A stretch of 64,000 nt of DNA from Blasia pusilla (GCA_050084515.1 CM114271.1:930001-994000); one strand, 5' to 3'. Positions 11,521-57,338 are shown, numbered from the stretch's first letter. Notes: generated by a model not told the origin, from the sequence alone. A program made the numbers and translations.

Positions 11521-11590
11521 TAGGGTAGTAGGTCATGTCAGGGAGATGTGACATTTTCTATCTGGAGTTAGGGGGATCCAAGTGCCAGCT

Positions 11591-25803: not shown

Positions 25804-27287
25804 TTATTATTAAGAGAGGATGGGGTTAGGGAACAATCCTCCTATGTTGATATTTGTCCTTTCAAAGCTCTTCTATTGTTGACATGTATTTGAGGAGTAC
25901 TTAAATTAAAAGGACCAAAAATTAACATGTGCAAAGAAAATTCCCCCCTCAATGGTGCATAGCACGGGCATCATACCATTGGATAATATGACAAATCACA
26001 CCGATCCCTAGTAACTACTTCCGATCATAACCAAATTGAGGAAGTTGGGCCATTTCTGCACCCAAAAGTTTTGGGCATAGAATATTGGCAATCCTTTATG
26101 GTCGCCATTTCCTAGCATGCATGGAATGTGGCCCATAGAGATAAAAGAAACCTGAAAAAATGGTGATAGGGAACCCATCAAATGTACAAAAGAAGGGGAC
26201 TAGAAGAGTAGAAGTTCATGCCTATCCTAAATGTAGAAGTCCACATGTGTGCTTTATAATTTTTGATGATTTTCTTCTTTAAAAATATTTATAGGATTAT
26301 GGCCTTGAGACGCAAGAGTTAATTTCCCTTTGCTTATGGGAAATTTCAAGATTTTTCAAAGAAACTTTGATTTAGTTTGATCTTGATTTTGATTTTAATT
26401 GCCTGAAAAAAATTCTAATTTAAGTGGTCGGCTTAATAAAGAATGTTGCCACTAGGGGAATTATGGCCTTGTCTCCATGCGTGATGGTTCTCCCACTCTT
26501 GGTTAGAGATGTAAATATAACCCATTAATGCTTTATGAGGGCCACTCAAATCAATCTTTAGAGTGATTTTTGTGGATGTTATAAAAACTATTGTTAAGAG
26601 ACTTACAAGTGGATCCTTCATTTCTTTCAAAAATAGGAAAAAAAAAGGGTAAATAAAACTTGTATGATTGCATGGGAGCAATCATCATGCTTCCCATACA
26701 TTCAAAAAATATGCATGTGCTATCAAAACATTTTCTTGTTACGCCATTCTCATGTGTCAATTAGAGAGATGTTCGCCAATCGAGAAACTATCCTCCTTTA
26801 ATAGTATAGACGTTTTCAAGAAATTCCATGTATCCTCCGACAATCCTTAGCGATTTTCAAAGGTTGCCAAAGGCAGAAACACACAATGGCGGTATGGTCC
26901 ATTCCTACTCACACCTTACATCTCATACAAATGGTGATTTTTAATTGATCAATCTTCATTGATATTTCATCTCTAGACCTTTCTATCAAGACAACACTCT
27001 CACTCCCTTGGAATGGGGATATCTTAAACTCTTGGTTTCAAAAATTCTAGCTTGAATATTTTTGGATTTCTATGAGATATTTCTTCAGGTTTTACAAAGC
27101 ATTTATTCCCTTTTCTTTATGAAACTTGTCATGACCATACGGATTATGTCGTAGAGTATAGTGTGCTAGTAGAGGCCATACCTTATGTAGGGCCGTAGTG
27201 TCTAGGTAGAGATGCGGTTTCATACATAGGGCTGGGGGTTACTCAGTTGAGTGTGACTTTTCCAATAGGGCCCGCTCTTAGGTTGGA

Positions 27288-27506
27288 GGATATAGTGTGG
27301 AGTGCACTCAAAGAACAGTTAGTTCTTTGAGTTGATCCTGTTGCGTTGGGAGTTAGCCTTGGTAGTGAGTAGAGCTCTTGGCTATGGTGGTTCCCGCAAG
27401 CTTCCACTCGAATTCTCCCATCGTGGAGTGGGTTTGGCTCGATTGTATGTGATTCTATACGTGTTTTATGACAATAGTTCTTTCACGGATTTCACTCAAA
27501 GAACTA
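27288..27506 (+). promoter_or_regulatory. E2 TATA-like box, putative transcript 5' end and self-complementary primer-binding site
   Basis: ggatatag lies at ~27288. tagttctttgag (27320-27331) is the exact reverse complement of ctcaaagaacta (27495-27506), which immediately follows the ...ggatttCA end of A. Confidence 0.7.
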
Positions 27507-27617
27507 GAGTAGATCGAGGGTAGCTTCGATCGTGGATCAGTAGGATCTGGTTAGGGCTGATTGTGTACTCAACCGTGGATGTTCGTGGCTTGTGGCCTAT
27601 GTTGGATTTGGAATCTG

Positions 27618-30600
27618 TGTCGTGCGAATCCACATCGTCATACAACATACATCGCTGACATACCATACGCACATACATACATAACATAGACGAGAGTATC
27701 CACAAACGCAAGTGTACCACAACTCGCCCCCCTAACTGGCGGTTAGGTCCCTCTAACTCCCAGGTAGCCCTATACATCTACTACATGCTATACACCTTCT
27801 TGGGTGCCCGAAGCAGAAGGCCGGGTGCTAGGTTGCCCCATCGTTAGTCGCACATCTGTAATCCATATCATGCAAAGATCAAGTCATCTACCTCTCCTAA
27901 GTACATCGAGGACAAACCCACCTTCCAGTAGGAACAACATCCAAACGTGGAGTCAAACACATCATGTGCCAACCCCTAGAACACGGATCACACACCAACA
28001 TACGGGCACGTTACCGCAGACCACACAACATGCACCTCAAGCTAGCACGTATCATGGCTAAGCTTGGGTCAACAAGACCATCCACATTTGGAAGATGACA
28101 TGGCGCACAATTACGCACATGGTCCTTCCAAACAACTCCATCACGACCCTCCGACATGAGAACTCCGAAGCTAACACCTCACGCACTCGAAAAATAGTGC
28201 GCCTGCCGTCACATCCAACGCGTTGTCGGGCAATCTGCTACAAATAGACATAGTCCCCACATGGAACCTACGAATCGATGGTCGATAACCTCCACCGAAT
28301 GGTTGCATACCGCAACGTATCCCTGCGTGTTGAGCAATGGCAAGATTCTCAAAGGTCGTTGGCATAACTCTCCAAAGAGCTCCGCCCACGAGAACACACC
28401 CTCATCCACATCTCGGGTCATCAAGGTTCACCACCTCACTAGACTCTCGGCAATTCCGCCGGCAAGTCCGGATCTCGGCCGTATAATGTAGAAAATAAGG
28501 TGAGAAGGAAGCCAAGGATGCTTGGCGATCGAACCTATACCCCATGGCTAACCATGGCAATTCAATATCCCAGTCTCCAAGATGCCCCTTCAGAGGCCAT
28601 ACTTGCGCAATGCCCTCTTCACCGTCTCGAACCACACGCTCAGCCAAACCATCCGCCTGGATGATCTCGAGACGTGGTCCGATGATCAATCAACGCCTTG
28701 TCACACAAGACCTGAAACTCACCTGAAACTCAGATCCTGGTCGGGTCAAGACTTCGGTGGTGCACCAAAATGACTAAGCACTCTATCCGAAACGCATACG
28801 CCGTTCCCTCACTTGCCTTGTCCGGTAATGCCACCAACTCAATCCACTTGGAGAAGTGCTCCACCATCACCAACACATATCGATGATGTCGTACAGTCAA
28901 CGGTAATGGTCCCGCAAAGTCCGCACTCCAACGGTAACCCCAACCCATAATAGGCAAGGGGTGTAACTGTGGTGTAGGGGCATTGAATGATGCCCTCACC
29001 CGGTCACAAACCATACAACATGACACCAACTGCTGCACCTGAGTATGCATGCCACGCCACCAATACTGGCCAAGGAGTAAGCTATACGTACGCTTTACCC
29101 CAAAATGTCCCAACTCTTTATGGGCATGTCGCACAATGCGCTCTCTCTAAGCCAAATGTGGCACTACTCGTACTCTACCATCCTCCCACATGCGGAGAAT
29201 ATGTGTTCCCTCCAATCGATACCTCTTAGCACGTTGAAGAACACGGTCTCGCTCCTTGGCACTCACTTGCCTGGCACCCTACTGGTCCGTAGGAACTCCA
29301 ACACCAACGCATCATCATGAATATCACGCTGATCCGTACCACCATCTCCAACCTTAGGATCTCAAGGTGGCCATCTACCCCTCGACTAGAGTAAGATATC
29401 ATGTGGTCCTCCATACTAGAGTCCACCCCTAACCAACATAAAAGGCGGATGCATGCCAACCTGGCACCATCTCCTCATCAACCTCGCCATGCCATCTAGC
29501 CCCGCTTGTATCCTCTTGGCTAGTACATGGGTTCCTACTCAACCCATCAAAGATCAAGGTTGGCAACTCCATGTCTATGTACCACCCGGAAGTCATACTC
29601 TCTGTAAGATAAGAGCCCACCGTGCAAGCTTCCCCTGTAAGCTTGTCCGACTCCATCAACCACTTGAGCGGTGGTGATCAGAACAAGGGTAAATCGTGTG
29701 CCAAACAAGTAACACCTAAAGTGTGCCACAACCCACACTCTTGCCAAGCACTCTCCCTCATATGAACTATAGCGCGACTCGCTGCATTATTCGAACGACT
29801 TGCATAGGCCACCACAAACTCCATGTGCTCATCATCATGTTGTGTCAACACCGCTCCAAGTCCCAACCTACTCCAATCAGTGTGTAACTGAAATGGGCGC
29901 CCTCTGATAGGTCTCCTCAAGATAGGCGCCGCCACCAACTGGGCCTTAAGCTCCACAAAAGCTCTCTCCTGATCATCTCCCCAGTGCCACTCTTGATCTG
30001 ATTTCAGCAATTGGTTCAAAGGCTTTGCCATAGCACTAAATCCCTTCACATACCTCCGATAGTAGTTCGCCAATCCCATGAATGCTCGAACTCTACTCAC
30101 ATCTATCGGACGCGGAATAAGTGCAATAGCCTCCACCTTTGCTTGCTGAACTCCCAAACCACATGGATAGATCACATGACCCAAGTACTCAACATCCTCA
30201 TGGAAGAACTTACACTTTCCTGGATGCAAACGTAGACCATGAGCTTTCAACCGCTCAAACACCATCTGCAAATGTATCTGATGAACCTCCACGGTGTTAC
30301 TGAACACCAAGATATCATCAATGTAACACCGAACAAAATCCAACCCTGCAAGGATCCTGTCCATCACTCTTTGAAACTCGGCAGGTGCATTCTTCAACCC
30401 AAAGGGTAAGAATTTCCACTGGTACAAACAATCCTTGCCATGAGAGTTGACACCCCAAAATGCTGTCTTGGCCTTGTCACTCTCCCGAATCGGCAATTGA
30501 TGGTATCCTGCCTGAAGATCCAAAGTACTGAAAATCTTTGCCTCTCCCACCACATCAAAGATCTCCTCAGGTGTAGGCATGGCATACCTATCGGCCTTGG

Positions 30601-33600
30601 TTTGCCGATTGATAGGACGGTAATCTCCACACATCCGCCTATCCGTATAGTTGCCATGCATATCCTTTTAGCAGCATGACAAGTGGCGATGCATACTCTC
30701 CATGCGACAACTCCACTAATCCAGCCTCCAAAAGTTCCAACTTCCTACTCTGAATCAGGTCCCTCTCCATATCACTATATCGGTAGGGACGACAGAAGAT
30801 TGGTGTATCACTAGCCAAATCAATCCGTATACCGGGTCCAACCAGAGAACCCAACTCCTTCATGCTAAAGGCAAAACAACTCCTATAAGCACGTAGGAAG
30901 GCGTGTCAGCGTCGTTTCTCACCTCCCGTAAGCTTGGGCCCAAGTAATGGCTCCCAAGTCTCCTCCTTTGGCATACTAGAGGGAGAGGCGATGCCATTGG
31001 TCGCTACATAACCCCCTCACAAGATGATACACCCTTAGCTACACCATCATCTCGAGCAAATAACTCCTCCACCAAAGCATGAGCAACCAACTCCACATGC
31101 CCAGCCATTACATCCCATTTACTCCAAGGATGCAAAATACTACTCTCTTCACCCCCGATGCCTCTACCGTCCTGGTAGCCATCGAGCTCATTACAAGGGT
31201 GGAAGACCCACGGACATGGTCCGAAGTCGATATTTGCTCGGCCATACCAAGACTCAAAATCCAAGTCAAACAATTCAGGTCCATGGCCTGACCCAACACA
31301 TGACGTCGTGAAGCCTCAAAAATAGAAGCAACCGGCCACGCCGAGAGTAAATCCCATCGCACGCTCTCTCTCATCAGTGTTAGGCTCCACCAACTGTCGC
31401 ACATGAGAATCCCATACAAGCCCCGGACCACCTTCCCTCGTAGGCATGTGACGGGAAAACTCACAAATGTGGGTAGTGCCATCCTAGGTGGCCCACACGG
31501 TTCACCACCGCCATGGGTGACCGATCAATAACCCTCACCACTTGAGAAAGTCGCCAAGATTCAAGATACTATCCATTGTAAAGGCGAGGATCCCGCCATC
31601 GCATCATCCGCTTTCGACGTAGGACCTCCTAGGCAACAAGTTTGTCCACCACAAGCGTGGACGATCTGCACACGAGCCAACTCGCGCTGCATCCAACAAC
31701 ACCGCTGGTCCAATCCAAGACCGCACCTCGTGAACAATCGCCATCATCCGGGTCCTTACATTCTCATGGATCATCAGGCATGTGCTCTAGCTTACATTGG
31801 AACATTTCCGAATGTAAGCTAGAGCACATGCTGATGAACTCAAGATGTCGTAACACCCGTAACATCTCCCAAAACAATCGAGACCTAGGGTCATGTAATC
31901 CCTCACCACGACCAAAGAGACGTATGACTTCGACATGGCCATCCAAAGAATCACCAAATCCACAGACCAACCCTCTCAAGGTCGTGGCGCCCCAACAATG
32001 CAATGTGTGATGGTAAAGCACGCCGGTACCTACGAATAGCCGATGGCGGCAACAACTCAGATATCTCCGCATCAATCGACCAATATGTCGGGATGAGACT
32101 CTCTGGTCGTCTCATCTCGCTCCACATACACGTATCTCCACAGAATACCGGCCTCCAACATCGCCGCCAAACCGGTGCTAATCCCACCAAAGAGATCTAA
32201 CACACAAATGCCCTCCGGCGGATACGCCATACAATGGGTGTAGTATCCAAAGGGGATAACCTAATGGGCAGGAAGTAGGAGTCCGCCGTGGGGCCTCCTC
32301 TTCCTCGTGAGGTATATGACCTCACACCAAGCCTCTGCACTAGGCGTCGCCTCCGCCGTAGTGCACCGCTGAACTCCAAAGTGGCACATCCAACGATGAG
32401 GATGCCACTTGCTGCAAAAATAGGGACCTCCTCTTCCTCCTCATGCGCAGGAGAATCCATAGCGTAAAACATTACCCTCCAAAAAGTCTCCGGCCAAGTG
32501 ACTACTCCACTAAAACTAGCCACAGATGCTAACTTTGTTGGGGAAGACCCTCCTGGTCGAGCCCAGTAAATAAATCTCACAGAACTTGGCTCATACGTCC
32601 ATCCCGGACTGCCAACCTGGTCTATAAGACGTATTTGTCCGCCTAGTAATCCATCTGAAAACCCATCGGGTACACATCGCTCCTCCTACTAGTACATCAT
32701 ACGACTCGGGATGTGACTACATGCAGATACTCCCAACCGGGAGCTATCGTCGCATGATCTGGTCTCAACTAGACAGAAAACTTCTCCCGTGTCATGAATT
32801 GAGACCTATCATTGGCTCCTCCAAGTGATGTTTGAATCTGGAATGGGCAAGGCTCAAGCTCGACCTCCGAATACCCAAACCAATACATGCCGCCTTTCCC
32901 AACATCAAAGGTTGGGCACCGAGTCTAACAAGACTCTATCCGGTCTATACACTGCCCTCTGTAGGACTCACCAATCGGAAGATCCCACCGGTTGTCCAAC
33001 ATACTTACACCAGGTGTAAGCCTCTCACGATCAATGGTGGCCGGGCTCGTAATGCATCCATCTTCGCCGCCGCCGCTAAGTAGCATGGTACTCAATGCTA
33101 CTCCTCGACATAGAGGGTCGCTCCACCGCAACATCCTCATCCACCTCAACACGTGTAGCAAGAATAACACCCCACGTTCACACAATGTGGTCGCTAGCTG
33201 AAATACAGAGCTAAGTCAACTCCTAAAGCCATCGGCTCCGTGGCGAAAACAATGGGGATCCTAACACCGGTTGCCATCCGCACTTAATCGACCTTTGGAT
33301 GTTGTATCCGTGTCTACTACATGCGATGTAGATGCCTCGGTCCCCACTGTCGGCTCAATAGGTCGTGTAGGAACCATGGATGGAGTCCTAAGCACCTCAG
33401 ACAACAAGAATGATGGGAAGCCTAGCTCGCCTCCCAGCCTCACCCCTATGTGGGTCCAACTCACAAGAGCACCACGTAGCTCGACGCCGAGTGGCTCTCT
33501 CTAAGTAATCGCAGGTGATGCCTCAACTTTGTCTTTGCACTCGCCATATAAGAGAGATCATCCCCTCCATAAGAGGTGGAAGTCCTCGCTCCCGAACCCG

Positions 33601-36600
33601 ATCTATCTTTGGATACCGACCATAGTAGCCAATAACCGCTCCAATCTGCTCAATCTCGGCAGCCATAGCGACTCTGTTGTAGTGGTAGGGGTAGCCACCG
33701 TAGGCTCTCCAACCACCTGGTCCACCTCTACCACCCCTACCACCTCGGCCTCTCGGAGCTACTCCACGCGGCCGCGGCCGATCTCAACTCGGATGAAGAT
33801 CAAAGCAACGCTCTCGAGGATGACCGGGTCTCCCGCAATGATCACACCTGAAGTTGGGGCCGATTGAGGCCCATCCTCCAAAGTCCGTCTCCCATCCTCT
33901 TGGGGACAAAACTTCCTAACATGATCACCTCCATATGTCCAACATGATCGCCCTTGCTGGGGGCAGCAAATGAAGGCAATGGTCTCTGCACAAGTGTCCT
34001 CTAGGACTTGACTCGAGGTCGCGTGTACCCCCACGACTCTCACTACTACTACCACCACCACTACTACGAGATTGTGAGGTGGGCGGTGAACACGAGAAGT
34101 AGTAGTTGTATCCCTACATGAATGCGGATGTCACCACTCTCTCCTTCATCATGTTAAGCTCAATCTTCTCGAGATAGAGCAAACACATGGGTCAATGTGG
34201 GTGAATCATCACTCATAAGAGTAGCATCACGCACCCTACGGCGCAAATCTCTGTCCAAGATCCCATACCAAAATCGATGCTCGATCCTCAGTCACCCCTT
34301 GGGTAATCGAAATCAAGCGTCGCATACGCGCGTGTATGCCTCACGAAGACTCTCACCGTCTTTTGCTCAAAGTCCTGAAGATTCCTCAACTTCTCCGTCT
34401 TCACTCCTTGATAGTTCTTCTTCAACCTCTTGAAGAACTCTGCAACCGGGCTAAACGATGGTGGGGCACTAGTACCTCCACTAGTACCTCCACTGGTACC
34501 CCCACTCCGGCTCGTACTCGTACCACTTAGCATCGGGTCGGGCCGGGCATAGTAGGAGCACTACTACCAATACCACCATGGGTGATAGACACATAGCCTG
34601 GAGACCTATATTGTCTCCATGCCTCAATCTAAACAACATGGTCCTTCCTAAACTCATGGTAATCATCCATGGGTGGTCCTTCCAAATCTTTGAAACAACC
34701 CTTCCAAGCCAAGAAGGGTGTAAACAACGTGCGTTCGCAACATCTACATATCACACCACGTATCAAACTCCTGCATGAAGTCCTCCAACTCAATGGTACC
34801 CACAGCACCCAAGTATCGTCGTGGGCCCTTCATGGCCCCATATCCACCGTCCATGTCCCAAATCAATGGAGCGCAACACTCGATAACAACGAGAAGACTC
34901 GGTGTTTGGAACACCTCGTCCTCCTCTTCATCAACCGTCGGAAGTGGAAAAGGTAGCCGATACCTAAATCCACTCCGTGTGAAACCACCATCGTCCGCAC
35001 CACGGTCCCCAACCAGACCACCCGATGACTCGTGATGACCAACGCCGATGCCGCACCACCACCAAATTACCAAGTGACGTCGATGTCGCTATACTATTCT
35101 AGCTCTACTAGCTATGGGTGTAGGCAACCTAACTTGTCATCACCACAAGAAGTCTCCCACAATCTACTCGTCATCCTTCCAGCCTCAGTACCGGTAGCAC
35201 ACAGGAGTAACACTACTCTGGAAATCAGCGTCAACCCTAACAATGGGCACGCAAGCAAGAAGCACGATGGAGGGGATCCAAACACAGGAAATCTAACGAC
35301 AACCCTCCAATCGCAAATGGAAATCAAGGTAACACAATCCACCAAACGTGGTGCCCTCTGAATTCACAAAACCCACCACACAATTCTAACGCAATAGCTA
35401 CTCCTCCGCGGGTCGATGACGTGCTAGTCGAACGCGCAGCATCTGAAAATATCACCTGCATGGAGAGGCTACACCGTACTATGCGCTAGAGGTACATCAA
35501 CCAAAAACCTGAGATGCATAAAGTGCCTAACACATCTCCGAACAGCACCAAATGAGCTACAACAGTATGTACACTGGCATAGTTAAGAACTCGGCAGTTA
35601 AGCGTCCTCCAGGCAGAATAGCCCAAAGATGGGTGACTAGTTATGCAAAACTCAAATCCCAAATCCTGCAAAAATTGCCTCACGCCAAGCAAGCTTGCTT
35701 GCTTGCTCCTTGCTCCTTACTCCGCCTCTCACGCCCACTCGCCCCGAGCTACCACGAGTTGCCTCGAAGCCTCGAAGCCTCGAACCGTCGAGACATGCCC
35801 CGTTCGCCCCGTTCGCCACGCTTCGCCATGCTTCGCTATGGAGAGAGGTCCAACTAGGGCGCCCCCAACGGGATAGGCATCTCCAAAAATGAATGAGTCA
35901 CCAACCAACCAGCCCCTCCGATCCGCTGTCCACCATAGCCAGACCTTGAGCTAGTCCGCGAAATTTCGATCAGAAATTACTTCACAAATACGTGACCAAA
36001 ATCAAATCTGTTTTGATCAGAATTCAATTGACCACCATAGCTATCTCCCCACAAAAACTCACCTACAACCAAGCTCCGTACTCCGAGCTAAAAATCAGAC
36101 AAACTTGCTGTCCATACACCTCTAGAACCGCAAATCCGACAGCGCTTCCGCCAAGTTTCATGCACGCAGAAATCCGCAACGCTCCACGCACTCGAGCAGA
36201 TAGCTTCACATGAGATCACAATACAAGTAGCAATAGGAACCTCTCACCCGATCTGGATGAACTTCAACAGAGCTTCCGCACTCCAAGCTCTCCACATCAA
36301 AAAACTGTCGAACACGAACCAGAATCTTCAATGCTTGATAACTTCCAACTCCCTTGACGAAATCCGGCGATCTATAGCGCGTTGGAAAGCTCTCAGCAAG
36401 GCGCTTCTTTCCCAACCAACCACGCACCTGATTCACACCTCCAACATAGGCAACAAGCCACGAACATCCACGGCTGAGTACACAATAAGCCCTAACCAGA
36501 TCCTACTGATCTACAATCGAAGCTACCATCGATCTACTCCAATTCTTTGAGTGAAATCCGTGGAAGACCTACTGTCATGAAACACGTTTACAATCACATA

Positions 36601-36919
36601 CAATCGAGCCAAACCCACTCCACGATGGGAGAATCTAGGTCGAAGCTTGCGGGAAACACCATAGCCAAGAGCTCTACTCACTACCAAGGCTAACTCTCAA
36701 CGCAATAGGCTCAACTCAAAGAACTGACTGTTCTTTGAGGGCAAGCCACCTTATATCCTTCAACCTAAGAGCGGGCCCTACTGGGAAAGTCACCCCCAAG
36801 TGAGTAACCCCCAACCCTATGTATGGAACCGCATCTCTACCAAGCCACTCCAGTCCTACATAAGGAATGGCCTCTACCAGCACACCATACTCTACGACAT
36901 AATCCGTATGGTTATGACA
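27618..36919 (-). mobile_element. E3: Ty3/Gypsy-DNMT retroelement (family 2), structure A-int-B with no terminal direct repeat
   Basis: TCTG/TCTG TSD (27614-27617, 36920-36923). The host leader of E2 rejoins seamlessly across it. A = 36552-36919, B = 27618-27721. Confidence 0.95.
27900..35030 (-). pseudogene. E3 gag-pol (gag, protease, MTase ~31250-32215, RT, RNase H, integrase, PHD)
   Basis: A 327-aa RT/RNase H ORF (29678-30661) contains YIDD, and an integrase HHCC ORF lies at 28730-29134. The rest is broken by many small indels. Confidence 0.9.
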
Positions 36920-40119: not shown

Positions 40120-40380
40120 CAACCGGAGTGGGATGTTCCGATTGGTGAGTCCTACAGGACAAGTGTATAGACCAGATATAGTCTTGTTAGACTCAGGTGC
40201 CCAACCTTTGATGTTGGGAAAGGCGGCATGTATTGGTTTGGGTATTCGGAGGTTAGAGCTTGAGCCTTGCCCATTCCAGATTCAAACATCACGTGGAGGA
40301 GCCAATGATAGGTCTCAATTCATGACACTGGAGAAGTTTTATGTACAGTTGAGACCAGATCATGCGATTGATAGCTCCCG
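40120..40380 (+). pseudogene. E2 aspartic protease (N-terminal part; C-terminus deleted)
   Basis: VLLDSGAQP active-site motif at ~40180-40206. Confidence 0.85.
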
Positions 40381-44853: not shown

Positions 44854-47800
44854 GAGAGGTAGATGACTTGATCTTTGCATGATATGGATTACAGATGTGC
44901 GACTAACGATAGAGCAACCAAGCACCCGACCTTCTGATTCGTGCACCCACGAAGGTGTATAGCATGTAGTAGATGTATAGGGCTACCTGGGAGTTAGAGG
45001 GACGTAACCGCCAGTTAGGGGGGCGAGTTGTGGTACACTTGTATTTTTGGATGCTCTCGTCTATGTTATGTAGGTATGTGAGTATGGTATGTCAGCGATG
45101 TATGTTGTATGACGATGTGGATTCCCACGACAATTATCATGACCATACAGATTATGTTGTAGAGTATAGTGTGCTAGTAGAGGCCATACCTTATGTAGGG
45201 CCGTAGTGTCTAGGTAGAGATGCGGTTTCATACATAGGGCTGGGGGTTACTCAGTTGAGCGTGACTTTTCCAGTAGGGCCCGCTCTTAGGTTGGAGGATA
45301 TAGTGTGGAGTGCACTCAAAGAACAGTTAGTTCTTTGAGTTGAGCCTGTTGCGTTGGGAGTTAGCCTTGGTAGTGAGTAGAGCTCTTGGCTATGGTGGTT
45401 CCCGCAAGCTTCCACCCGGATTCTCCCATCGTGGAGTGGGTTTGGCTCGATTGTATGTGATTCTATACCTGTTTTATGACATTAGATCTTTCACGGATTT
45501 TAGTTGTGGTACACTTGTGTTTGTGCATGCTCTCGTCTATGTTATGTAGGTATGTGAGTATGGTATGTCAACGATGTATGTTGTATGACGATGTGGATTC
45601 GCACGACAAACTAAATTCTAATCTTTTGGGATCCAATTGAAAATATCTAAAAACGAGTTTAATGGCCTGTGTGATGCCAAAAAAAAAAGTTCTTTAAAGA
45701 CAAAGTTGAAATGAAATGGTACTTTTTAATGCATATATAGCTAATGGAAGTTTTATAATCCTCGAACGAGGAGTTAGTGAAGAATTGTCGAATGACATTT
45801 GCATTAGAGAGCATTTAGCCACTCTAAGGCATAGAATAATGGCCTCAATCGGATATTGCACCCACTGGATGCCGTATGAGATCGGGCTGTAGCAACCTTA
45901 TCAGACCAACTACTAGTAGTGGCTAGACGTACATGAGCGATGGTGATGTCCATTTGGTTGCTTTTTGGCTCTGGACCTTCGACAAGTCCAACGTAGCCCC
46001 CCATGTATGGCACATTAGGTGCACACCAATGAAGTAAGTAGGATTCGTGACATGAGCATCAATTTTGTACAAAATTTTATCCGCATATATAGAGATTTTT
46101 CTTCTTGCATCATTTGGCTCGTGTCATTGGTGTGTTGAATAAATTAAATGAGATTTTAATAAATTTCTATAAGGTTTTTGGTAAATTATAAGCTGAGGAA
46201 AAAATGTTGGGGCTCAATTCTAAATCACACTGGCAATGCTTCCATAGATTGCAAGATCTTTGCGGCTCCATTGCGAGCCAACGACAAGTCATCGCGACTA
46301 CTTGTAATAAAATGGAACTTTGTAGCCGCAAACTATGAGTCAGATTCACATTCTTTGCGAGTCAGCTGGGAGTGCAACACTTGCAACGTTGTGGCTGCAT
46401 TGTGACTATGATGCACCATAAAATTAAAATTTTATGTCACAAAATTGAAGGGAAAAAAGAAAAGATGGCAATAAAGTGATAATAAGACTTCATAATAAGT
46501 CTTGGAAGATTTTGAACCCCTCAAATTACATAACATTCATTACCATATCTCTATTTTAGAATTTTGAAAATGAACAGAATTTCTATTATCATTTATAATA
46601 TTCATTATCTACAAGAATTCTAATATATTTACTTCTTCCCAAATAAAGGAGAAATATTCACTTAAAAAAACCTTTAAAAAGTCGTTCTAGAACACATGAG
46701 AGGAACGCAGTCACCTACTCAACGAACACGTGTCCAACAGTGAAGCTCCCGCGGTTCCCCGAAAACCACGTAGTACAGATATCACAGTCATATTGTGACA
46801 ACTGCCACATGTCAGGACGATCTCATCTCAACCGCACTGGCACCGGCACCTGTCACATGTCCACGTTCGTGCAAAGACGTGCCAACCTACCCCTGCATGT
46901 CCCTACAGGTGGCCCGATCCTGCCGGCTCTCAAATAGTAGGTGAGATCTGTGCCGTTGGTGAAACGAACGTGGGAGACAGGGGTTCTTACCCCGTTGGGC
47001 GTGTAAACTTTGGACTTTGGAGGGAAAGGTACGTACTCGTGGGTAATTAAAAGCACCACCTTGTGGATAAATAACTATTACCAACTTACCAGCATCGGTA
47101 AGCCGTATGTGTCTAGGCCCTAAAAACACCGACAAAAGAAAAAAAATATCTAATAAAAATAATTAATAATTACGAGAGTAATTGATTCCATTTAATGCAT
47201 TCAACTCATGTACTCGTAAGTGTGACCACTAAGTCACTCGTTACGTTTCAGCACTAAACACGTTTCTAATTAAGATGATTGGTACCTTTAAATCATAATA
47301 AATAATTGTTGTTTGTCTCTCGTATCCTCTTAGGTCACATTAGGTTTTCATGATAAGCATTCATCAGGAATTATATCACACGATTACAACCTCTACTTAT
47401 AATTGTTTTTCTTTTATTTCTTTATTTCTTGGAGCGTATTTATGTGGATTCCATTCACCATTTCTTTTCACATATGTGAAAATTTTCCCCTCTCAAGGGT
47501 TACATACGGTTTCATATTTGATGGACATCACAAGTTCATTCATGTAGGAGTAGGTAGATGGATATGCCGTCCTATTATTTTAGAATTATATTTTAATGTA
47601 AAATTTATAAACCATTTTAAATCTTAATTGTAGATGGTGTGCAAGACATGAAAAATATCCATGAATTAATTTTTTACCTAAAATATCTTTCCAAAATTTT
47701 TGGATTATTTATTTTCATATTTTTATCAAGTATTTATTTACAACAAATTTCACAAATTCAACTCCAAAATTAGAACATGTCCAATGTTTTACACATGATG

Positions 47801-48018
47801 AGGCCTTGGGACAAGTGGGGAAGTATATCTCAAGGAGAGACAAGCTTGGAGGTCATTATTTTATTGTTGAGCTTTCGTGTGTAACCAAAGCCTCTTAACT
47901 TCAAGAGATCATGAGAGAGTTCATTTGAAGCCCAAGAGTGAAGACTGAAGTGGGAAAGAGCCATCCTCGACCCGGGAGACGAGTGTAGAAGGAGCGGTCT
48001 CCGGGAGCAAAGGATTTT

Positions 48019-51000
48019 TGTCGTGCTTAATCCACATCATCATACAACATACATCGTTGACATACCATATTCACATACATACATAACATAAACGAGAGCA
48101 TCCACAAACACAAGTGTACCACAACTGAAATCCGTGAAAGACCTACTGTCATAAAACACATATAGAATCACATACAATCGAGCCAAACCCACTCCACGAT
48201 GGGAGAATCTAGATCGAAGCTTGAGGGAAACACCATAGCCAAGAGCTCTACTCACTACCAAGGCTAACTCCCAACGCAATAGGCTCAACTCAAAGAACTG
48301 ACTGTTCTTTGAGTGCACTCCACCTTATATCCTCCAACCTAAGAGCGGGCCCTACTGAAAAGTCACCTTCAATTGAGTAACCCCCAACCCTATGTATGAA
48401 ATCGCATCTCTACCTAGAAACCACGACCCTACATAAGGTATGGCCTCTACTAGCACACTATACTCTACGACATAATCCGTATGGTCATGACATACCGTCT
48501 GTCACGTTAAAAGCCGGAATGTCATCGAATCCACATCATCATACAACATACATCGCTGACATACCATACTCACATACCTACATAACATAGACGAGAGCAA
48601 CCAAAAACACAAGTGTACCACAACTCGCCCCCCTAATTGGCGGTTAGGTCCCTCTAACTCCCAGGTAGCCCTATACATCTACTACATGCTATACACCTTC
48701 TTGGGTGCACGAATCAGAAGGCCGAGTGCTAGGTTGCCCCATCGTTAGTCGCACATCTGTAATCCATATCATGCAAAGATCAAGTCATCTATCCCTCCCA
48801 AGTACATCGAGGACAAACCCACCTTCCAGTAGGAACAACATCCATACGTGGAGTCAAATACATCATGTGCCAATCCCTAGAACATCGATCACACACCAAC
48901 ATACAGGCTGCGTTACCAGCAGACCCACACAACATACACCTCAAGCTAGCACGTATCATGGCTAAGCTTGGGTCAACAATACCATCCACATTTGGAAGAT
49001 GATATGGCGCACAATTACGCACATGGTCCTTCCAAAAAACTCCATCACGACCCTCCAACATGAGAACTCTAGAAGCTAACACTCGCAAGCGACTCGTAAA
49101 ATAGTGCGGCATGCCGTCACATCCAACGTTGTCGGGCAATCGCTGCAAATAGACATAGTCCCCACATGGAACCTACGAATCGATGGTCGATAACCTCCAC
49201 CCGAATGGTTGCATACCGCAACGTATCCCCTGTGTTGAGCAATGGCAAGATTCTCAAAGGTCAGTTGGCATAACTCTCCGAAAGAGCTCGCCCTCGAGAA
49301 CACACTCTCATCCATATCTCTCGGGTCATCAAGGTTCACCACCTCACTAGACTCGACTTAATTGCGCCGGCAAGTCCGGATCTCGGCCGTATAACAGTAA
49401 AAATAAGGTGAGAAGGAAGCCAAGGATGCTTGGCGATCGAACCTATACCCCATGACTAACCATGGCAATTGAATATCCCGGTCTCCAAGATGCCCCTTCA
49501 GAGGCCGGACTTGCGCAATGCCCTCTTCACCAAAATCCGAACCACACGCTCAGCAACCCAAACCATCGCCTCTGGATGATCTCGAGACGTGGTCCGATGA
49601 TCAATCAACGCCTTGTCACACAAGACCTGAAACTCACCCAAACTCTCTACCCTGGTCGGTCGCCAGCTTCACCTGGTGCACCAAAATGACTAAGCACTCT
49701 ATCAAGAAACGCATACGCCGTTCCTCACTTGCCTTGTCCGTAATGCCACCAACTCAATCCACTTGGAGAAGTGCTCCACCATCACCAACACATATCGATG
49801 ATGTCGCATAAACCAACGGTAATGGTCCCGCAAAGTCCGCACTCCAACGGTAACCCAACCCCATAATAGGCAAGGGGTGTAACTGTGGTGTAGGGGCATT
49901 GAATGATGCCCTCACCCGGTCACAAACCATACAACATGACACCAATCGCCTGCACTGAGTATGCATGCCACGCCACCAATACTGACCAAGGAGTAAGCTA
50001 TACGTACGCTTTACCCCAAAATGTCCCAACTCCTCATGGGCATATCGCACAATGTGCTCTCTCTGAGCCAAATGCAGCACTACTCGTACTCTACCACCCT
50101 CCCACATACGGAGAATATGTGTTCCCTCCAATCGTTACCTCTTAGCACGTTGAAGAACACGGTCTCGCTCCTTGGCACTCACTATGCTTGGCACCCTACT
50201 GGTCCGTAGGAACTCCATTACCAAGGCATCATCATGAATATCACGCTGATCCGTACCACCATCTCCAACCTTAGGATCTGAAGGCTGGCCATCTACCCTC
50301 TGACTAGAGTAAGATATTATGTGGTCCTCCATACTAGAGTCCACCCCTAACCAATATAAAAAGGCGGATGCATGCCAACCTGGAACTGTCTCCTCATCAA
50401 CCTTGCCATGCCATATAGCCCCAGTTGTATCCTCTTGGCTAGTACATGGGTTCCTACTCAACCCATCAGCATCAAGGTTGGCAACTCCATGTCTATGTAC
50501 CACCTGGAAGTCATACTCCTGTAAGATAAGAGCCCACCGTGCAAGCTTCCCTGTAAGCTTGTCAGACTCCATCAACCACTTGAGCGGCTGGTGATCAGTA
50601 ACAAGGGTAAAATGTGTGCCAAACAAGTAACATCTAAAGTGTGCCACAGCCCACACTACTGCCAAGCACTCTCCCTCATATGAACTATAGCGCGACTCCG
50701 TTGCATTATTCGAACGACTTGCATAGGCCACCTGAAACTCCATGTGCTCATCATCATGTTGTGTCAACACCGCTCCAAGTCCCAACCTACTCCAATCAGT
50801 GTGTAACTGAAATGGGCACCCTCTGATAGGTCTCCTCAAGATAGGCTCCGCCACCAACTGGGCCTTGAGCTCTACAAAAGCTCTCTCCTGATCATCTCCC
50901 CAGTGCCACTCTTGATCTGATTTCAGCAATTGGTTCAAAGGCTTTGCCATAGCACTAAATCCCTTCACATACCTCCGATAGTAGTTCGCCAATCCCATGA

Positions 51001-54000
51001 ATGCCTGAACTCTACTCACATCTACCGGACGCGGAATAAGTGCAATAGCCTCCACCTTTGCTTGTTGAACTCCCAACCACCTGGATAGATCACATGACCC
51101 GAGTACTCAACATCCTCATGGAAGAACTTACACTTTCTTGGATGCAAACGTAGACCATGAGCTTTCAACCGCTCAAACACCATCTGCAAATGTATCTGAT
51201 GCTCCTCCACGGTGTTACTGAACACCAAGATGTCATCAATGTAACACCGAACAAAATCCAACCCTGCAAGAATCCTGTCCATCACTCTCTGAAACTCGGC
51301 AGGAGCATTCTTCAACCCAAAGAGTAAGAATTTCCACTGGTACAAACAATCCTTGCCATGAGAGTTGACACCCCAAAATGTTGTCTTGGCCTTGTCACTC
51401 TCCCGAATCGGCAATTTATGGTATCCTGCCCGAAGATCCAAAGTACTGAAAATCTTTGCCTGTCTCACCACATCAATGATCTCCTTAGGTGTAGCCATGG
51501 CATACCTATCGGCCTTGGTTTGCCGATTGATAGGACGATAATCTCCACACATCCGCATATCCGTGTAGTTGCCATGCATATCTGTTTTAGCAGGCATGAT
51601 AGTGGCTGATGCATACTCTCCATGCGATAACTCCACTAATCCACCCTCCAAAGGGTCCAACGTCCTACTCTGAATCAGGTCCCTATCCATATTATTATAT
51701 CGGTAGGGATAACGGAAGATTGGCGTATCACTAGCCAAATCAATCCATATACCGGTTCCAACCAGAGAACCCAACTCCTTCATGCTAAAGGCAAAAAAAC
51801 TCCTATTAGCACGTAGGAACTGTGTCAAGTGTCGTTTCTCACCTCCCGTAAGCTTGGGCCCAAGTAATGGCTCCTAAGTCTCCTCCACTGGCACACTAGA
51901 GGGAGAGAACGATGCCATTGGCTGCTACGCAACCCCCTCACAAGATGATACACCCTTAGCTACACCATCATCTGAGCAAATAACTCCTCCACCAGCATGA
52001 GCAACCAACTCCACATGCCCAGCGATTACATCCCATTTACTCCAAAATACTACTCTCCTCGCCCTCAGCCAATGCCTCTACCATCCCGGGAGCCATCGAG
52101 CTCATTACAAGGGGTGGAAGATCCAGAGACATAGTCCGAAGTCGACGATGCTTGGCCATACCAAGACTCAAAATCCAAGTCAAACAATTCAGGTCCATGG
52201 CCTGACCCAACACCTGACGTCGTGAAGCCTAAGAAATGGAAGCAACCGTTGTCACACCAGTAGCAAAATCCCATCGCACGCTCTCTCTCATCAGCGTTAG
52301 GCTCCACCAACTGTCGCACATGAGAATCCCATACAAGCCTGGAACCACCTTCCCTATATGCATGTGACGAGGGAAAACTCATAAATGTGGGTAGTGCCAT
52401 CCTAGGCTGGCCCACACGGTTCACCACTGCCATGGATGACCGATCAATAACCCTCACCACCGAGAAAGTCGCCCAAAGATATCAAGATACTATCCACTGT
52501 AAGGCAAGGATCCCGCTGCACTGCATCATATGCTCGACATAGAACCTCCCTAGGCAACAAGTTTGTCCACCACAAGCGTGGACAATGTGCACGCGAGCCA
52601 ACTCGTGCTGCATCCAACAACACCGCTGGTGCAATCCAAGACCGCACCTCATGAACACTCGCCATCATCCGGGTCCGAGTGTCACCCAACAATGGAACAT
52701 TCTCCAGAATGTAAGCTAGAGCACGTGCCTGATGAATCTGAAGATGTCGTAACATCCGTAACATCTCCCAAAACAATCGAGACCTAGGGTCGTGTAATCC
52801 CTCACCACGACGAGCACGTGTATGACCCTGACATGGCCATCTAGCAATCACCAAATCCACAGGACCAACCCTCTCAAGGTCCTGCGCCCCCAACAATGCA
52901 ATGTGTGATGGCAAAGCATGCTGGTACCCACGAATAGCTGATGGCGGCAACAACTCAAGATATCTCCGCATCAACTGACCAATATGTCGGGATGAGACTC
53001 TCTGGGCCGTCTCATCTCGCTCCACATACACGTATCTTTGCACAGAATACCGCCCGCATAACACTCTGACCAAACCAAAGTGCTAATCCCACCAAAGAGA
53101 TCTAACACACAAATGCCCTCCGCGGATATCGCCATATAATGGGTGTAGTATCCAAAGGGTATAACCTAATGGACCAGAAGTAGGAGTCCGTGGGGCCTCC
53201 TCTTCCTCGTGAGGTATAATGACCTCACACCAAGCCTCTGCACTAGGCGATCAGCCTCCTGCCGTAGTGCACCGCATGAACTCCAAAGTGGCACATCCAA
53301 CGATGAGGATGCCACTGCTGCAAAAATAGGGACCTCCTCTACCTCCTCATGCACAGGAGAATCCATAGTAGAAACATTACCCTCCAAAAAATCTGCTGGC
53401 CAAGTGACTACTCCACTAAAACTAGCCACAGATGCTAACACTGTTGGGGAAGACCCTCTTGGTCGAGCCCCATAAATAAATCTCACAGGAACTTGGCTCA
53501 TACGTTCATCCCTGGACTGCAAACCAGGTCTATAAGACGTTGTCTCAGTCTAGTAATCCATCTGAAAACCCATCGGGTACAATACTGCTCCTCCAACTAG
53601 TACATCATACGACTCGACTCCGATGTGACTACGCAGAGATACTCCCAACCGGAGCTATCGATCGCATGAGCTGGTCTCAACTGTACAGAAAACTTCTCTC
53701 GTGTCATGAATCGAGACCTATCATTGGCTCCTCCAAGTGATGTTTGAATCTGGAATGGGCAAGGCTCAAGCTCTGACCTCCGAATACCCAAACCAATACA
53801 TGCCGCCTTTCCCAACATCAAAGGTTGGGCACTTGAGTCTAACAAGACTCTATCTGGTCTATACACCTGTCCTGTAGGACTCACCAATTGGAATATCCCA
53901 CTCCGGTTGTCCAACATACATACACCAGGTGTAAGCCTCTCACGATCAATGGCTGGCCGGGCTCGTAATACATCCATCTTCGCCGCTGCTGCCTGCCAAG

Positions 54001-57000
54001 TAGCACTGGTACTCAATGCTATACCTGACATAGAGGGTCGCTCCACCGCAACACCCTCATCCATCTCAGCACGTGTAGCAGTAACACCCCCACGTTCACA
54101 CAACGTGGCTGCTAGCTGAAATACAGAAGCTAAGTCAACTCCCAAAGCCATCAGCTCCGTGGCCGAAAACAATGGGGATCCCAACACTGAAGTTGCCATC
54201 CGCAATACTGCACTGGATGCTCCATCCGTGTCTACTACACGCAATGTAGATGCCTCAGTCCCCACTTTTGGCTCAATAGGTTGCGTAGGAACCATGGATG
54301 GAGTTCTAATTACCTCAGACAACAAGAATAATTGGGGAAGCCTAGCCTGCCTCCCAGCCTCACTCCTCTGTGGGTCCAACTCCACAGTAGCACCACGTGG
54401 CTTTGACGCTCGAGTGGCTCCTCTCGTAACTGCAATTGATGCCTCAACCTATGCTGCACTCGCCATATAAGAGAGATCATCCCCTCCATAAGAGGTGGAA
54501 GTCCGTGCTCCCGAACTCGAACTATTTGGATACCACCATAGTAGCCAACTCGCTCCAATCTGCTCAATCCTGGCACCATAGCCGACTCAGAGTGGTAGGG
54601 GTGGCCACCGTAGGCTCTCCAACCATTGGTCCACCTCTACCACCCCTACCACCTCTACCACCTCGGCCTCTCGGAGCTACTCCACCACTGCCGCGGCCTG
54701 ATCTCAACTCTGGATAAAGATCAAAGCAACGTTCTCGAGGATGACCTGGTCTCCCGCAATGATCACACTGAGTTTGGGCAGACTGAGGCCCATCCTCCAA
54801 AGTCCGTCTCCCATCCTCTTAGGGACAAAACTTCCTAACATGATCACCTCCACATATCCAACATCACTGTCCTTGCTGCGGGGCAGCAAATGAAGGCAAT
54901 GGTCTCTGCACAAGTGTCCCTCTAGGACCTGACTGAGGTCGAGTGTACCCCCCATGACTCCCACTACTACTACCACCACCACTACTACGAGACTGTGAGG
55001 TGGGCCGCTAAACACGAAGTAGTAGTTGTATCCCATCTTGAATGCGGATGTCACCACTCTCTCTTTCACCATGTTAAGCTCAATCTTCTTAGAAAGAGCA
55101 AACACATGGGTCAATGTGGGTGAATCATCACTCATAAGAGTAGCATCACGCACCTGTGGCGCAACTCTTGTCCAAGATCCCATACCAAAATCGGATCGCT
55201 TGAGCCTCGTCACACCTTGGCTCCGGCCCGGCTCGCACTGCATTACCACTCAACGTCAGCCGGGCCGGGCATAGTAGGAGCACTACTACCAATACCACCA
55301 TGGGTGATAGATACATAGCCACGAGACCAATATTGTCTCCATGCCTCAATCTCAACAACATGGTCCTTCCTAAACTCATGGTAATCATCCATGGGTGGTC
55401 CCTCCAAGTCTTTGAAACAACCCCTTCCAAGCCAAGAAGGGTGTAAACAACGCATGTTCCGCAACATCGCATATCACACCACGTATCAAACTCCTGCATG
55501 AAGTCCTCCAACTCAATGGTGCCCACTGTACCCGAGTATCGTCGTGAGCCCTTCATGGCCCCATATATCCCGTCCATGTCCCAAATCAATGGAGCTGCAA
55601 CACTCGATAACAACGTAGAAGACTCGAAGTTTGGAACACCCTCGTCCTCTTCTTCATCAACCGTCGGAAGTGGAAAAGGTAACCGATACCTAAATCCACT
55701 CTGTGTGAAACCACCACTGTCCGCACCACGGTCCCCAACTAGACCACCCGACAGCTCCGTGATGACCAACGCCGATGCCGCACCACCACCAAATTATCAC
55801 CACTAAGTAACCAAGTAACGTCGATGTCGCTATATTATTCTAGCTCTACTAGCTATGGGTGTAGGCAACCTAACCTGTCATCACCACAAGAAGCCTCCCA
55901 CGGTCATCACTCCAGCCTCACTACCGGTAGCACACAGGAGTAACTCTACTCTGGAAATGAGGGTCAACCCTAACAATGGGCGCGCAAGCAAGAAGCAACG
56001 ATGGAGGGGATCCAAACACAGGAAGTCCAACGACAACCCTCCAATCGCAAATGGAAATCAAGGTAACACAATCCACCAAACGTGGCGCCCCCTGAATCCA
56101 CAGAACCCACCACACAATTCTAACGCAATAGTTACTCCGCCGCGGGTCAATGACGTGCTAGTCGAACTTGCAGCACCTGAAAATATCACCTGCATGGAGA
56201 GGCTACACCGTACTATGCGCTAGAGGTCCATCAACCAAAAACCTGAGATGCATAAAGCGCCTAACATCTCTCCGAACAACACCAAATTAGCTATAACAGT
56301 GTGTACACTGGCATAGTTAAGAACTCAACTGTTAAGCGTCTTCCAGGTAGAATAGCCCAAAGATGGGTGACCAGTTATGCAACACTCAAATCACAATTAC
56401 TCAGCAAATCCTTGACCAAAATTGAATCTGTTTCGACCAGAATTCAATTGACCACCATAGCTATCTCTCCACAAAAAATTAGCTACAACCAAACTCTGTA
56501 CTCCGAGCTAAAAATCAGACAAACTTGCTGTCCATACACCTCAAGAATCGCAAATCCGACAGTGCTTCCGCCCAGTTTCATGCACGTAGAAATCTGCAAC
56601 GCTCCACACACTCGAGCAGATAGCTTCACATGAGATCACAATACAAGTAGCAACAGGAACCTCTCACCTGATCTGGATGAACTTCAACAGAGCTTCCGCA
56701 CTCCAAGCTCTCCACATCAAAAAACCGTCGAACACGAACCAGAATCTTCAATCCTTGATAACTTCCAACTCCCTTGACGAAAACCAGCGATCTAAAGCAT
56801 GTTGGAAAGCTCTCAGCAAGGCGCTTCTTTCCCAACCAACCACGCACTAGATTCACACCTCCAACATAGGCCACAAGCCATGAACATCCACGGCTGAGTA
56901 TACAATCAACCCTAACCAGATCTTACTGATCCACAATTGAAGCCACCATCGATCTACGTCAGTTCTTTGAGTGAAATCTGTGAAAGACCTACTATCATAA

Positions 57001-57338
57001 AACACGTATAGAATCACATACAATCGAGCCAAACCCACTCCACGATGGGAGAATCTAGGTCGAAGCTTGCGGGAAACACCATAGCCAAGAGCTCTACTCA
57101 CTACCAAGGCTAACTCCCAACGCAACAGGCTCAACTCAATGAACTGACTGTTCTTTGAGTGCACTCCACCTTATATCCTCCAACCTAAGAGCGGGCCCTA
57201 CTGAAAAGTCACCCTCAATTGAGTAACCCCCAACCCTATGTATGAAATCGCATCTCTACCTAGAAACTACGACCCTACATAAGGTATGGCCTCTACTAGC
57301 ACACTATACTCTACGACATAATCCGTATGGTCATGACA
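48019..57338 (-). mobile_element. E4: Ty3/Gypsy-DNMT retroelement (family 2), structure A-int-B-27bp-A-GT-B
   Basis: A = 56972-57338 and 48126-48492; B = 48520-48622 and 48019-48123; PPT at ~48625-48635; PBS at 56958-56971. The flanks ATTT(T)/ATTT fit a 4-bp TSD if one extra T is allowed. Confidence 0.9.
48795..55770 (-). pseudogene. E4 gag-pol (gag, protease, MTase ~52160-53115, RT, RNase H, integrase, PHD)
   Basis: ORFs: 53597-54385 (VLLDSSAQP); 52444-53073 (WPCQG, YILENV, AHCPRLWWTNL); 51022-51828 (YIDD); 50135-51076 (RNase H); 48789-49148 (complete C4HC3 PHD). Confidence 0.92.

Follow-up and report, generated by a model that had tools for sequence, protein, structure and literature searches.

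A 64,000-nucleotide stretch of DNA from Blasia pusilla (GCA_050084515.1 CM114271.1:930001-994000; hereafter the window) contains three related retrotransposon copies, E2, E3 and E4, which raise the question of how elements with the coding region of a Ty3/gypsy retrotransposon can be inserted without a pair of flanking long terminal repeats (LTRs). In textbook LTR retrotransposition the integrase acts on the two ends of linear complementary DNA (cDNA), and LTR circles are regarded as dead ends. In the window, the two parts of the LTR, here called A and B, lie apart and in permuted order, and an earlier interpretation made from the sequence only (the sequence-only reading) had proposed that the integrase opens LTR circles, or trims linear cDNA, at a palindrome inside the LTR. 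The best reading of the sequences analyzed here is that a DDE integrase would cut a conserved palindrome inside the LTR of end-joined cDNA, and we give this reading a probability of roughly 0.55.

The copies were located by self-BLAST of the window and their junctions were read directly in the sequence (Table 1). All three belong to one Ty3/gypsy family, are ~90–95% identical to one another and have TG..CA termini. E2 and E4 have the order A1-int-B1-A2-B2 (long form), where int is the internal region, and E3, which is nested inside E2, has the order A-int-B (short form); B was found upstream of A1 in none of the three. This is the anatomy that the sequence-only reading had described, with one-base coordinate shifts only. 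The GT that it had placed after the polypurine tract and after A is present but is not a separate piece, being the first two bases of the B repeat in both B1 and B2. Its claim that E2 and E4 each result from a single insertion event agrees with the identity between A1 and A2, which is 97.0% in E2 and 97.5% in E4 versus 89.8–93.8% for A between elements. B1 and B2 are 95.4% (E2) and 93.9% (E4) identical, and the divergence of the A pair and that of the B pair are alike within each element, both in the window copies and in the self-compared loci described later, as is expected for a single insertion event. We also considered that the long form might be a short form with a later, adjacent solo insertion, and this was ruled out by the similar divergence of the A and B pairs, the absence of a target-site duplication (TSD) at B1-A2, and the constant 2-nt spacer at that junction.

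To determine how copies outside the window are built, we drew 80 related loci from metagenome contigs with a 12-sequence integrase alignment (integrase identity to the window copy 41–85%) and assigned them to classes by searching every one with BLAST for the A and B segments of four reference copies. Twenty-seven loci have the long form (integrase [IN], purine tract, B1, A2, B2 and flank) and 24 the short form (IN, purine tract, B and an unrelated flank of at least 150 bp); a further 24 have no B match because the contig ends early or the family is too distant, two are cut after B-A, and three were left undetermined. Merging loci with the same flank resulted in 41 independent places, 20 with the long and 21 with the short form, where the short-form count includes L040 (a deletion variant) and L080 (a weak B match only). 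As the sequence-only reading had claimed for the window, no insertion of the ordinary LTR-int-LTR (BA-int-BA) form occurs among the 41 places or the three window copies. Likewise, none of the 27 loci that were self-compared (chosen for length from the 80) contains an ordinary flanking LTR pair, and B is absent ahead of A1 in each of the eight loci that have 1.9 kb or more of upstream sequence. The two complete direct LTRs flanking an internal region that the definition of Ty3/gypsy elements asks for are thus absent from the copies tabulated. The order recurs in L031, which represents a third and more distant family, with the ends ..TTACA, the spacer AC and TGACATGA... Ordinary copies inserted into other copies were ruled out as a source of the layout, the flanks being diverse host sequence.

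The signals for reverse transcription define a different unit from the one that the insertion ends define. A purine tract lies directly before B1 (AGGGGGGCGA in E2, with the same tract in E3, E4 and 25 loci) and a primer-binding-like site directly after A1, and the reverse-transcription unit is therefore B+A, as the sequence-only reading had stated, with a predicted cDNA of the form B.A-int-B.A. An LTR of the form A.B with a truncated 5' LTR was ruled out by the presence of these two sites, in these positions, in every copy. The site after A1 had been taken for a tRNA-like primer-binding site, and this does not hold: it does not begin with TGG, is not of tRNA type and is complementary instead to a segment inside A in seven of eight copies. 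In the clade of the window copies (near clade), ACTCAAAGAACTA pairs with a segment at about position 193 of A (TAGTTCTTTGAGT in E2) over 13 nt in E2, 10 in E3 and eight in E4, and in a distant clade AATTCTAGAAAAACT pairs with a segment at about position 163–183 of A over 15 nt in L033, L049 and L076 and 10 nt in L029. The sequences differ between the clades and the pairing is kept, which constitutes covariation. Minus-strand synthesis is therefore probably self-primed in the manner of Tf1/sushi instead of being primed by a tRNA. Self-priming has been described for Tf1/Sushi and the plant Tcn1 clade (PMC6317226). In those elements, likewise, the site beside the LTR can pair with a stretch of their own RNA, but they have ordinary LTRs and a chromodomain, whereas the window clade has split repeats and a PHD finger; here the pairing partner is the segment inside A, which is only predicted to be the 5' end of the RNA. 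A TATA-like motif lies ~30 nt upstream of this segment in E2 and E4. Together with the pairing, it would place the transcription start inside A, so that A1 alone could serve as the promoter.

The insertion ends do not fall at the termini of the predicted cDNA. Both ends could be read in 12 elements (E2, E3, E4, L001, L005, L018, L021, L029, L033, L049, L072 and L076), and the 4-mers that flank them match perfectly in eight (the other four are discussed below). In controls, perfect matches occur in 0 of 12 elements for the four bases lying farther out, and in one of 132 combinations for flanks paired across elements. A chance origin of the 4-bp duplications is excluded, and the claim that 4-bp TSDs abut TG..CA ends at the B-A junction is well founded. 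The duplicated 4-mers vary from element to element (AACT, TCTG, CATA, ATGT, CCTT, TACA, ACTA and TTTT), and the elements start with TGT(C/T)(A/G)TG and end with CA(C/T)(G/A/T)ACA; TG..CA termini with a TSD of 4–5 bp are features of Ty3/gypsy elements. The ends TGTCATG/CACGACA are common to clades whose A and B bodies lack significant similarity, since between-clade BLAST gave a best E value of 0.13 for A, whereas for B one pair gave no match and the other matched at the 7-nt end word only. Priming defines ends that differ between the clades, namely (A)GTTGTGG.. and ..TTTCA for the near clade and ATACATGAG.. and ..TTCAAT for the distant one, and those of the distant clade are not TG..CA. Shared insertion ends and clade-specific priming ends point to conservation of the kind expected for integrase recognition at the B-A junction and not at the cDNA ends. 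The end of B contains one or two copies of a 15-nt unit that ends in CACGACA (Table 1), B1 and B2 of one element can differ by one unit, and the TSD of L076 is perfect at the shorter B end; either CACGACA copy of a repeated B end may be able to act as the terminus.

The two junctions on the 3' side of the long form differ in their behavior. At B1-A2, the spacer is 2 nt long in 21 of the 22 long-form copies read, E4 being the exception. The spacers found are GC, AC, AT, GT and AA; transitions relate AC, AT and GT to GC, but not AA (L029). With a GC spacer, the junction core GACAGCTGTC is a perfect palindrome. By analogy with a processed retroviral end, a palindrome opened 3' of each CA would yield recessed CA-3' ends with 2-nt 5' overhangs. 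This recessed form follows from established integrase chemistry. At A2-B2, the length of the joint varies by 0–3 nt or by deletion. In the distant clade, TTCA is followed by nothing in L028, L030, L039/L079 and L071, by A in L046, by T in L045/L052, by AT in L029, L036, L041, L054 and L076, and by ATT in L065, and the extra A, AT and ATT correspond to the first bases of the primer site. In the same clade, L049 has lost ~8 nt and gained one G, and just 72 nt of A are left in L057/L061; in the near clade, L007 has three extra bases from the side of the purine tract. The joint types are scattered over a star-like tree of 16 copies, in which a well-supported clade of three has three joint types. 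From its scattered types and varying length, A2-B2 looks as if it were remade at each insertion from slightly ragged cDNA ends, which is the behavior of freshly joined cDNA ends that the sequence-only reading had ascribed to it, whereas B1-A2 looks inherited and constrained.

The coding capacity of the elements agrees with a retroviral type of integrase. E2, E3 and E4 are Ty3/gypsy-type retrotransposons with the order gag, protease (PR), C5-cytosine DNA methyltransferase (Dnmt), reverse transcriptase (RT), RNase H, DDE integrase and PHD finger. The order PR-RT-RNase H-IN of the Pol open reading frames (ORFs) of E2, from 39683 to 44853, is that of Ty3/gypsy, the RNase H is of Gypsy type, the integrase has an N-terminal zinc-binding domain (Integrase_H2C2), and the assignment to Gypsy elements with a DDE integrase had already been made by the sequence-only reading. 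The reading frames of E2 are interrupted by frameshifts and in-frame stops, and the DNA_methylase domain of E2, which is frame-broken, scores weakly. The Dnmt domain is found in both main clades, with a score of 28.4 bits in L029 (cut-off 22) and a weak match in L021. The catalytic residues D113, D173 and E208 (D, D-35-E) are invariant in the alignment of 12 sequences (the window copy and 11 relatives), and the integrase C terminus is a PHD finger and not a chromodomain. These proteins bear on a further explanation, in which a site-specific recombinase, either a tyrosine recombinase or one of the host, acts at the palindrome as an att site and the repeats in the flanks are the shared crossover core. 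Elements that encode tyrosine recombinases do have the same layout. However, the flanking 4-mers differ in each element and do not match the spacer, which argues against a crossover core common to all. In addition, the elements have TG..CA ends and encode a DDE integrase whose catalytic residues are invariant, and the tyrosine recombinase model PF00589 (Phage_integrase) has no match in the 28 ORFs scanned. Among these, ten ORFs from both strands of the 1.3-kb leader match no Pfam family above the cut-off and no recombinase. We regard this explanation as very improbable and already close to refuted.

From the repeats and their junctions we infer a pathway with a transcription start inside A, self-priming, cleavage by integrase and a circular or end-joined intermediate. 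The replication-competent genomic form would be A1-internal-B1-NN-A2-B2, in a streptophyte clade of Ty3/gypsy elements. Transcription would begin inside A at the TATA-like promoter, the minus strand would be self-primed by pairing of the RNA 5' end with the site directly after A1, the plus strand would be primed at the G-rich purine tract directly before B1, and reverse transcription would give an ordinary cDNA with an LTR of the form B.A at both ends. The DDE integrase would then bypass the cDNA ends and use TG..CA ends derived from the B-A palindrome (..CACGACA NN TGTCATG..), which would be opened with a 2-nt stagger, and these ends would be inserted with a 4-bp duplication. The cDNA termini, that is, the end of A and the start of B, would be joined together, either before integration in a 2-LTR circle or after it, and kept in the genome as the A2-B2 joint, so that the resulting layout would be that of a 2-LTR circle opened within one LTR. 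Precedents exist in vitro and for foamy virus: the integrases of HIV-1 (PMC1905944) and foamy virus (PMC1180852) are described as cleaving the palindromic LTR-LTR junction of 2-LTR circles. The likeness would be that a DDE integrase creates processed ends by cutting an internal palindrome of the CA-NN..-TG type. In the retroviral cases, however, the joint of the circle forms the palindrome, and the pathway is a side route or debated, whereas in the window clade the LTR unit contains the palindrome, the genome retains an unbroken circle-type joint, and the route is apparently the sole one.

Several observations weigh against this pathway. A 2-LTR circle has two identical B-A junctions, and a symmetric cut predicts A-B-A-int-B as often as A-int-B-A-B; the former was never seen, and the latter is found in all seven long forms whose 5' end is visible. 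Therefore, of the proposal that a 2-LTR circle is opened, the joint and the ends fit, but the single polarity demands an extra, unexplained asymmetry; possibly, the left LTR is completed as double-stranded DNA well ahead of the right one and its junction is engaged first. Among the 12 elements with readable ends, L033 has no TSD and the flanks of E4, L049 and L005 match at three of four positions, and the B1-A2 junction of E4 holds a 27-bp insert in place of the 2 nt. With respect to self-priming, L021 has no exact complement of the primer site of at least 8 nt and E4 one of only 8 nt; folds begun at the complementary segment close with the primer-site stem (z −2.75 for E2, and −4.58 and −4.12), but their start points were chosen at that segment, so that the closing stem is partly there by construction. 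RNA reads showed no 5' end at the predicted start, and one RNA run has an unexplained pile-up of fragment ends at 57178, beside the TATA-like motif of E4. Every copy examined is degenerate, the host genomes behind the metagenome contigs may be few, and ordinary ends may occur elsewhere in the source species, the loose read ends considered being the best supported, with 2474 more behind them. Finally, the mechanism is read entirely from genomic products.

The single polarity would also be explained if reverse transcription itself builds a linear A-int-B-A-B molecule by template switches between the split repeats and the integrase never cuts internally. Such directed copying would account for the one permutation seen in all seven long forms, and it has been proposed for PAT, Ngaro and DIRS-type elements; the window copies share their layout with the tyrosine-recombinase elements that have split direct repeats (PMC4157794, PMC6681497). 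In all copies, however, the purine tract before B1 and the primer site after A1 predict cDNA termini where B starts and A finishes; A2 has no purine-rich tract in front of it, and B2 is not followed by anything resembling a primer site. A templated A2-B2 joint, moreover, should not vary by 0–3 nt and by deletions among close relatives as the observed one does. We consider template switching an unlikely source of the layout, though a much stronger contender than a site-specific recombinase.

The short form can be explained in more than one way. Under cleavage of the internal palindrome, it could arise from use of both LTR junctions, from a one-LTR intermediate or from later deletion between B1 and B2; alternatively, the first double-stranded LTR would be the one cut. 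With no 3' acceptor available to the first strand transfer, it should be a dead end on standard LTR logic. A 1-LTR circle, one of the substrates named in the sequence-only reading, is not required for E3, as deletion between B1 and B2 yields an identical element with an unchanged TSD. Like E3, the remaining short forms may thus be long forms that lost A2 and one B through recombination or slippage between B1 and B2, like solo LTRs. B1 and B2 are direct repeats of 104–184 bp that lie 300–480 bp apart, the product retains its ends and its TSD as seen in E3, L001, L018 and L072, and without a 3' copy of A the short form should be a dead end by either origin. Against this, short forms are as common as long ones (21 versus 20 places), which is many for deletions, though possible, and cutting both LTR junctions of linear cDNA gives an identical product directly; the sequence does not distinguish the two origins. 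We give deletion a little less than an even chance of accounting for the short forms.

An artifact, in which assembly chimeras, nested fragments or decayed ordinary LTRs produced the layout, has to be weighed because the window copies are old (~90–95% alike), one of them is nested, and the junctions in the window are known from the assembly alone. We compared two DNA and two RNA public sequencing runs with E4; no indexed run shares more than 0.29 of the sampled words. In one DNA run (X1), 204,793 contigs align to E4, which points to a very high copy number under that species label, and in DNA contigs the end of B and the start of A are joined with 1–4 letters between them. In the two stranded RNA runs, nearly all reads are in the sense orientation with depth climbing toward the 3' end, and a few reads span B to A; most are 90–99% alike to E4, indicating that the expressed copies are others. 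Thus, DNA contigs and RNA reads bridge B to A; in addition, contigs assembled independently show the layout, ends and TSDs again at 41 places, and the layout has also been reported for Klebsormidium (PMC5890265). An artifact is the least probable of the explanations considered, with odds even longer than those of a recombinase. The public runs gave three further observations. Contigs show additional B-A junction variants of 1–4 letters, which may be compared with the insert of E4 at 48493–48519. In the two RNA runs, 16 and 28 reads skip 1020 bases at 49260–50281, within the integrase/RNase H region of E4, with the same 18 letters between the two sides, and these reads represent a deletion derivative or sub-family that is expressed. 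Where reads differ from the window (47900–57450), the changes are mostly C>T and G>A, for example at 304 and 244 places in the run X22; this excess fits decay of methylated cytosines, and the spacer variants GC, AC, GT and AT share the pattern.

The sequence-only reading knew of no description of such a layout, and in this it was mistaken. In the alga Klebsormidium nitens, the Pol of the Gypsy element KnitGypsy-Dnmt3 includes a Dnmt3 domain (de Mendoza et al. 2018, PMC5890265), and the legend of Fig. 4c in that paper gives its repeat structure as DIRS-like and its domains as Gypsy, with the DIRS arrangement given as A-coding region-B-A-B. The window clade shares both the C5-cytosine methyltransferase inside a Gypsy Pol and the A-coding-B-A-B repeats together with Gypsy domains, and based on this match in layout and domains we group the window elements with that kind, in a bryophyte-like genome. 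Three K. nitens proteins, which may or may not belong to KnitGypsy-Dnmt3, are 47–53% identical to the window integrase-PHD. The host lineage differs, the closest named relatives of the window clade being liverwort proteins, which are up to 81% identical over part of the query. The integrase-PHD relatives are found in Calypogeia (79%), Marchantia (70–81%), Riccia, Sphagnum (59%), K. nitens (47–53%) and one chlorophyte (45%). PF00145-bearing relatives of the Dnmt ORF of L021 are common among proteins of Sphagnum, Calypogeia and Marchantia, and K. nitens is absent among its matches; the Dnmt-carrying Gypsy clade extends well past Klebsormidium. The main-text parts on KnitGypsy-Dnmt3 give no TSDs, no junction palindrome or analysis of it, no short form and no mechanism, and the supplements might say more (PMC5890265). 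The name KnitGypsy was found in no other paper of the literature searched, and beyond that paper we found no description of a DDE element with split direct repeats in the open literature, judged from abstracts.

Elements of the DIRS order, namely PAT, Toc, Kangaroo, Ngaro and VIPER, have A1 at the 5' side and B1-A2-B2 at the 3' side (PMC4157794, PMC6681497, and the SymbioDIRS legend in PMC5890265), and in Trypanosoma cruzi an A2-B2-only derivative, SIRE, is reported (PMC6681497). The window elements have the same split direct repeats, A1 ... B1-A2-B2, and SIRE parallels the solo A.B unit that is predicted for the window clade. In contrast, these DIRS-order elements encode a tyrosine recombinase, whereas the window elements have a DDE integrase, TG..CA ends and 4-bp TSDs. 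To our knowledge, DIRS-order elements insert without a TSD.

Table 1. Features of E2, E3 and E4, of an older relative in the window and of related loci
Feature	Position	Strand	Remark
E2, whole	27127-45608	+	split at 27617/27618 by E3, continues from 36924
E2 5' TSD AACT	27123-27126	+	matches 45609-45612
E2 A1, 368 bp, starts TGTCATG	27127-27494	+	
E2 TATA-like motif in A1	near 27288-27296	+	direct reading
E2 complementary segment in A1	27320-27332	+	13-nt complementarity to 27494-27506
E2 primer-binding-like site	27494-27506	+	complementary to 27320-27332; closing stem in minimum-energy fold
E2 leader, first part	27495-27617	+	interrupted by E3; aligns with E3 and E4 leaders
E3, short form A-int-B	27618-36919	-	without A2-B2
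E3 TSD TCTG	27614-27617 and 36920-36923		both E3 flanks
E3 B	27618-27723	-	self-BLAST, direct reading
E3 purine tract	27724-27733	-	adjoins B
E3 A	36552-36919	-	self-BLAST, direct reading
E2 internal region	36924-45016	+	rest of leader to about 38270, then ORFs
E2 gag, zinc knuckles	38271-39682	+	ORF and motif
E2 protease	39683-40468	+	ORF and motif
E2 C5-DNA-methyltransferase-like block	40353-41767	+	motifs; Pfam DNA_methylase weak, E 0.0077
E2 RT	41931-42896	+	Pfam RVT_1 1.5e-30
E2 RNase H	42897-43523	+	Pfam RT_RNaseH_2 3.8e-34
E2 integrase-PHD	43489-44853	+	Pfam rve 2e-10, Integrase_H2C2 3.4e-6, PHD
E2 polypurine tract	45017-45026	+	
E2 B1, 106 bp including leading GT, ends CACGACA	45027-45132	+	self-BLAST, reading
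E2 spacer AT between B1 and A2	45133-45134	+	direct reading
E2 B1-A2 junction CACGACA-AT-TATCATG	45126-45141	+	near-palindrome; insertion ends fall at this sequence
E2 A2, starts TATCATG	45135-45502	+	self-BLAST, reading
E2 B2	45503-45608	+	A2-B2 joint at 45502/45503
E2 3' TSD AACT	45609-45612	+	adjoins B2 end
E4, long form	48019-57338	-	flanks TTTT and ATTT (3/4 match)
E4 B2	48019-48125	-	self-BLAST, reading
E4 A2	48126-48492	-	self-BLAST, reading
E4 27-bp insert between A2 and B1	48493-48519	-	replaces 2-nt spacer of other copies
E4 B1	48520-48624	-	self-BLAST, reading
E4 purine tract	48625-48634	-	then internal region
E4 A1	56972-57338	-	self-BLAST, reading
E4 TATA-like motif	57170-57179	-	direct reading
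Older relative of the same clade	8570-11736	+	~72% identical over RT-IN
15-nt B-end units, L076	11664-11682, 12154		
15-nt B-end units, L065	5107-5125, 5599		
15-nt B-end units, L052	11654-11666, 12108-12128		
Dnmt domain, L029	7021-7581		between protease and RT
Dnmt domain, L021	6730-8130		between protease and RT

The remainder of the window contains few other features. The older relative at 8570–11736 has a purine tract near 11589–11603 and a B-like segment that ends in CACGACA at 11736; no A2-B2 was found downstream of it, sensitive self-BLAST revealed no terminal repeats, and a search for its 5' end found none. At 3651–3693 there is a B end in reverse orientation. Tandem repeats outside the elements occupy 4161–4754 (two ~300-bp units), 13855–14119 (~85-bp units) and 16572–17082 (~170-bp units), and no ORF of at least 250 aa lies outside the retroelements in the window.

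The layout itself was already published in 2018 for an alga, its origin then being unexplained. As far as the literature was searched, the TSD evidence, the junction palindrome with its fixed 2-nt spacer and the variable joint of the cDNA ends are new, as are the equally abundant short form, the covarying self-priming site and the spread through mosses and liverworts. More tentatively, and with somewhat less confidence than would make it an even bet, we suggest that the whole bryophyte/charophyte clade with Dnmt and PHD domains integrates obligatorily via an att-like palindrome in the LTR, that its cDNA termini are joined and that its active copy is an opened 2-LTR circle. A large and widespread clade never shows the textbook product among the copies examined, and its predicted cDNA ends are found joined. 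If the proposed cleavage inside the LTR is true, this would be the first natural case of a retroviral-type integrase routinely using end-joined or circular cDNA, and would offer natural material in which to study how integrase acts on internal or circular DNA. It would also explain why these elements can be expected to be mis-annotated by LTR-finding software in bryophyte and algal genomes, and a connection with chromatin comes from the methyltransferase and PHD domains. Split repeats as in DIRS, Ngaro and PAT would then be independent of the tyrosine recombinase, which would bear on the origin of DIRS-order elements from LTR elements, and the clade may mark a step between the two.

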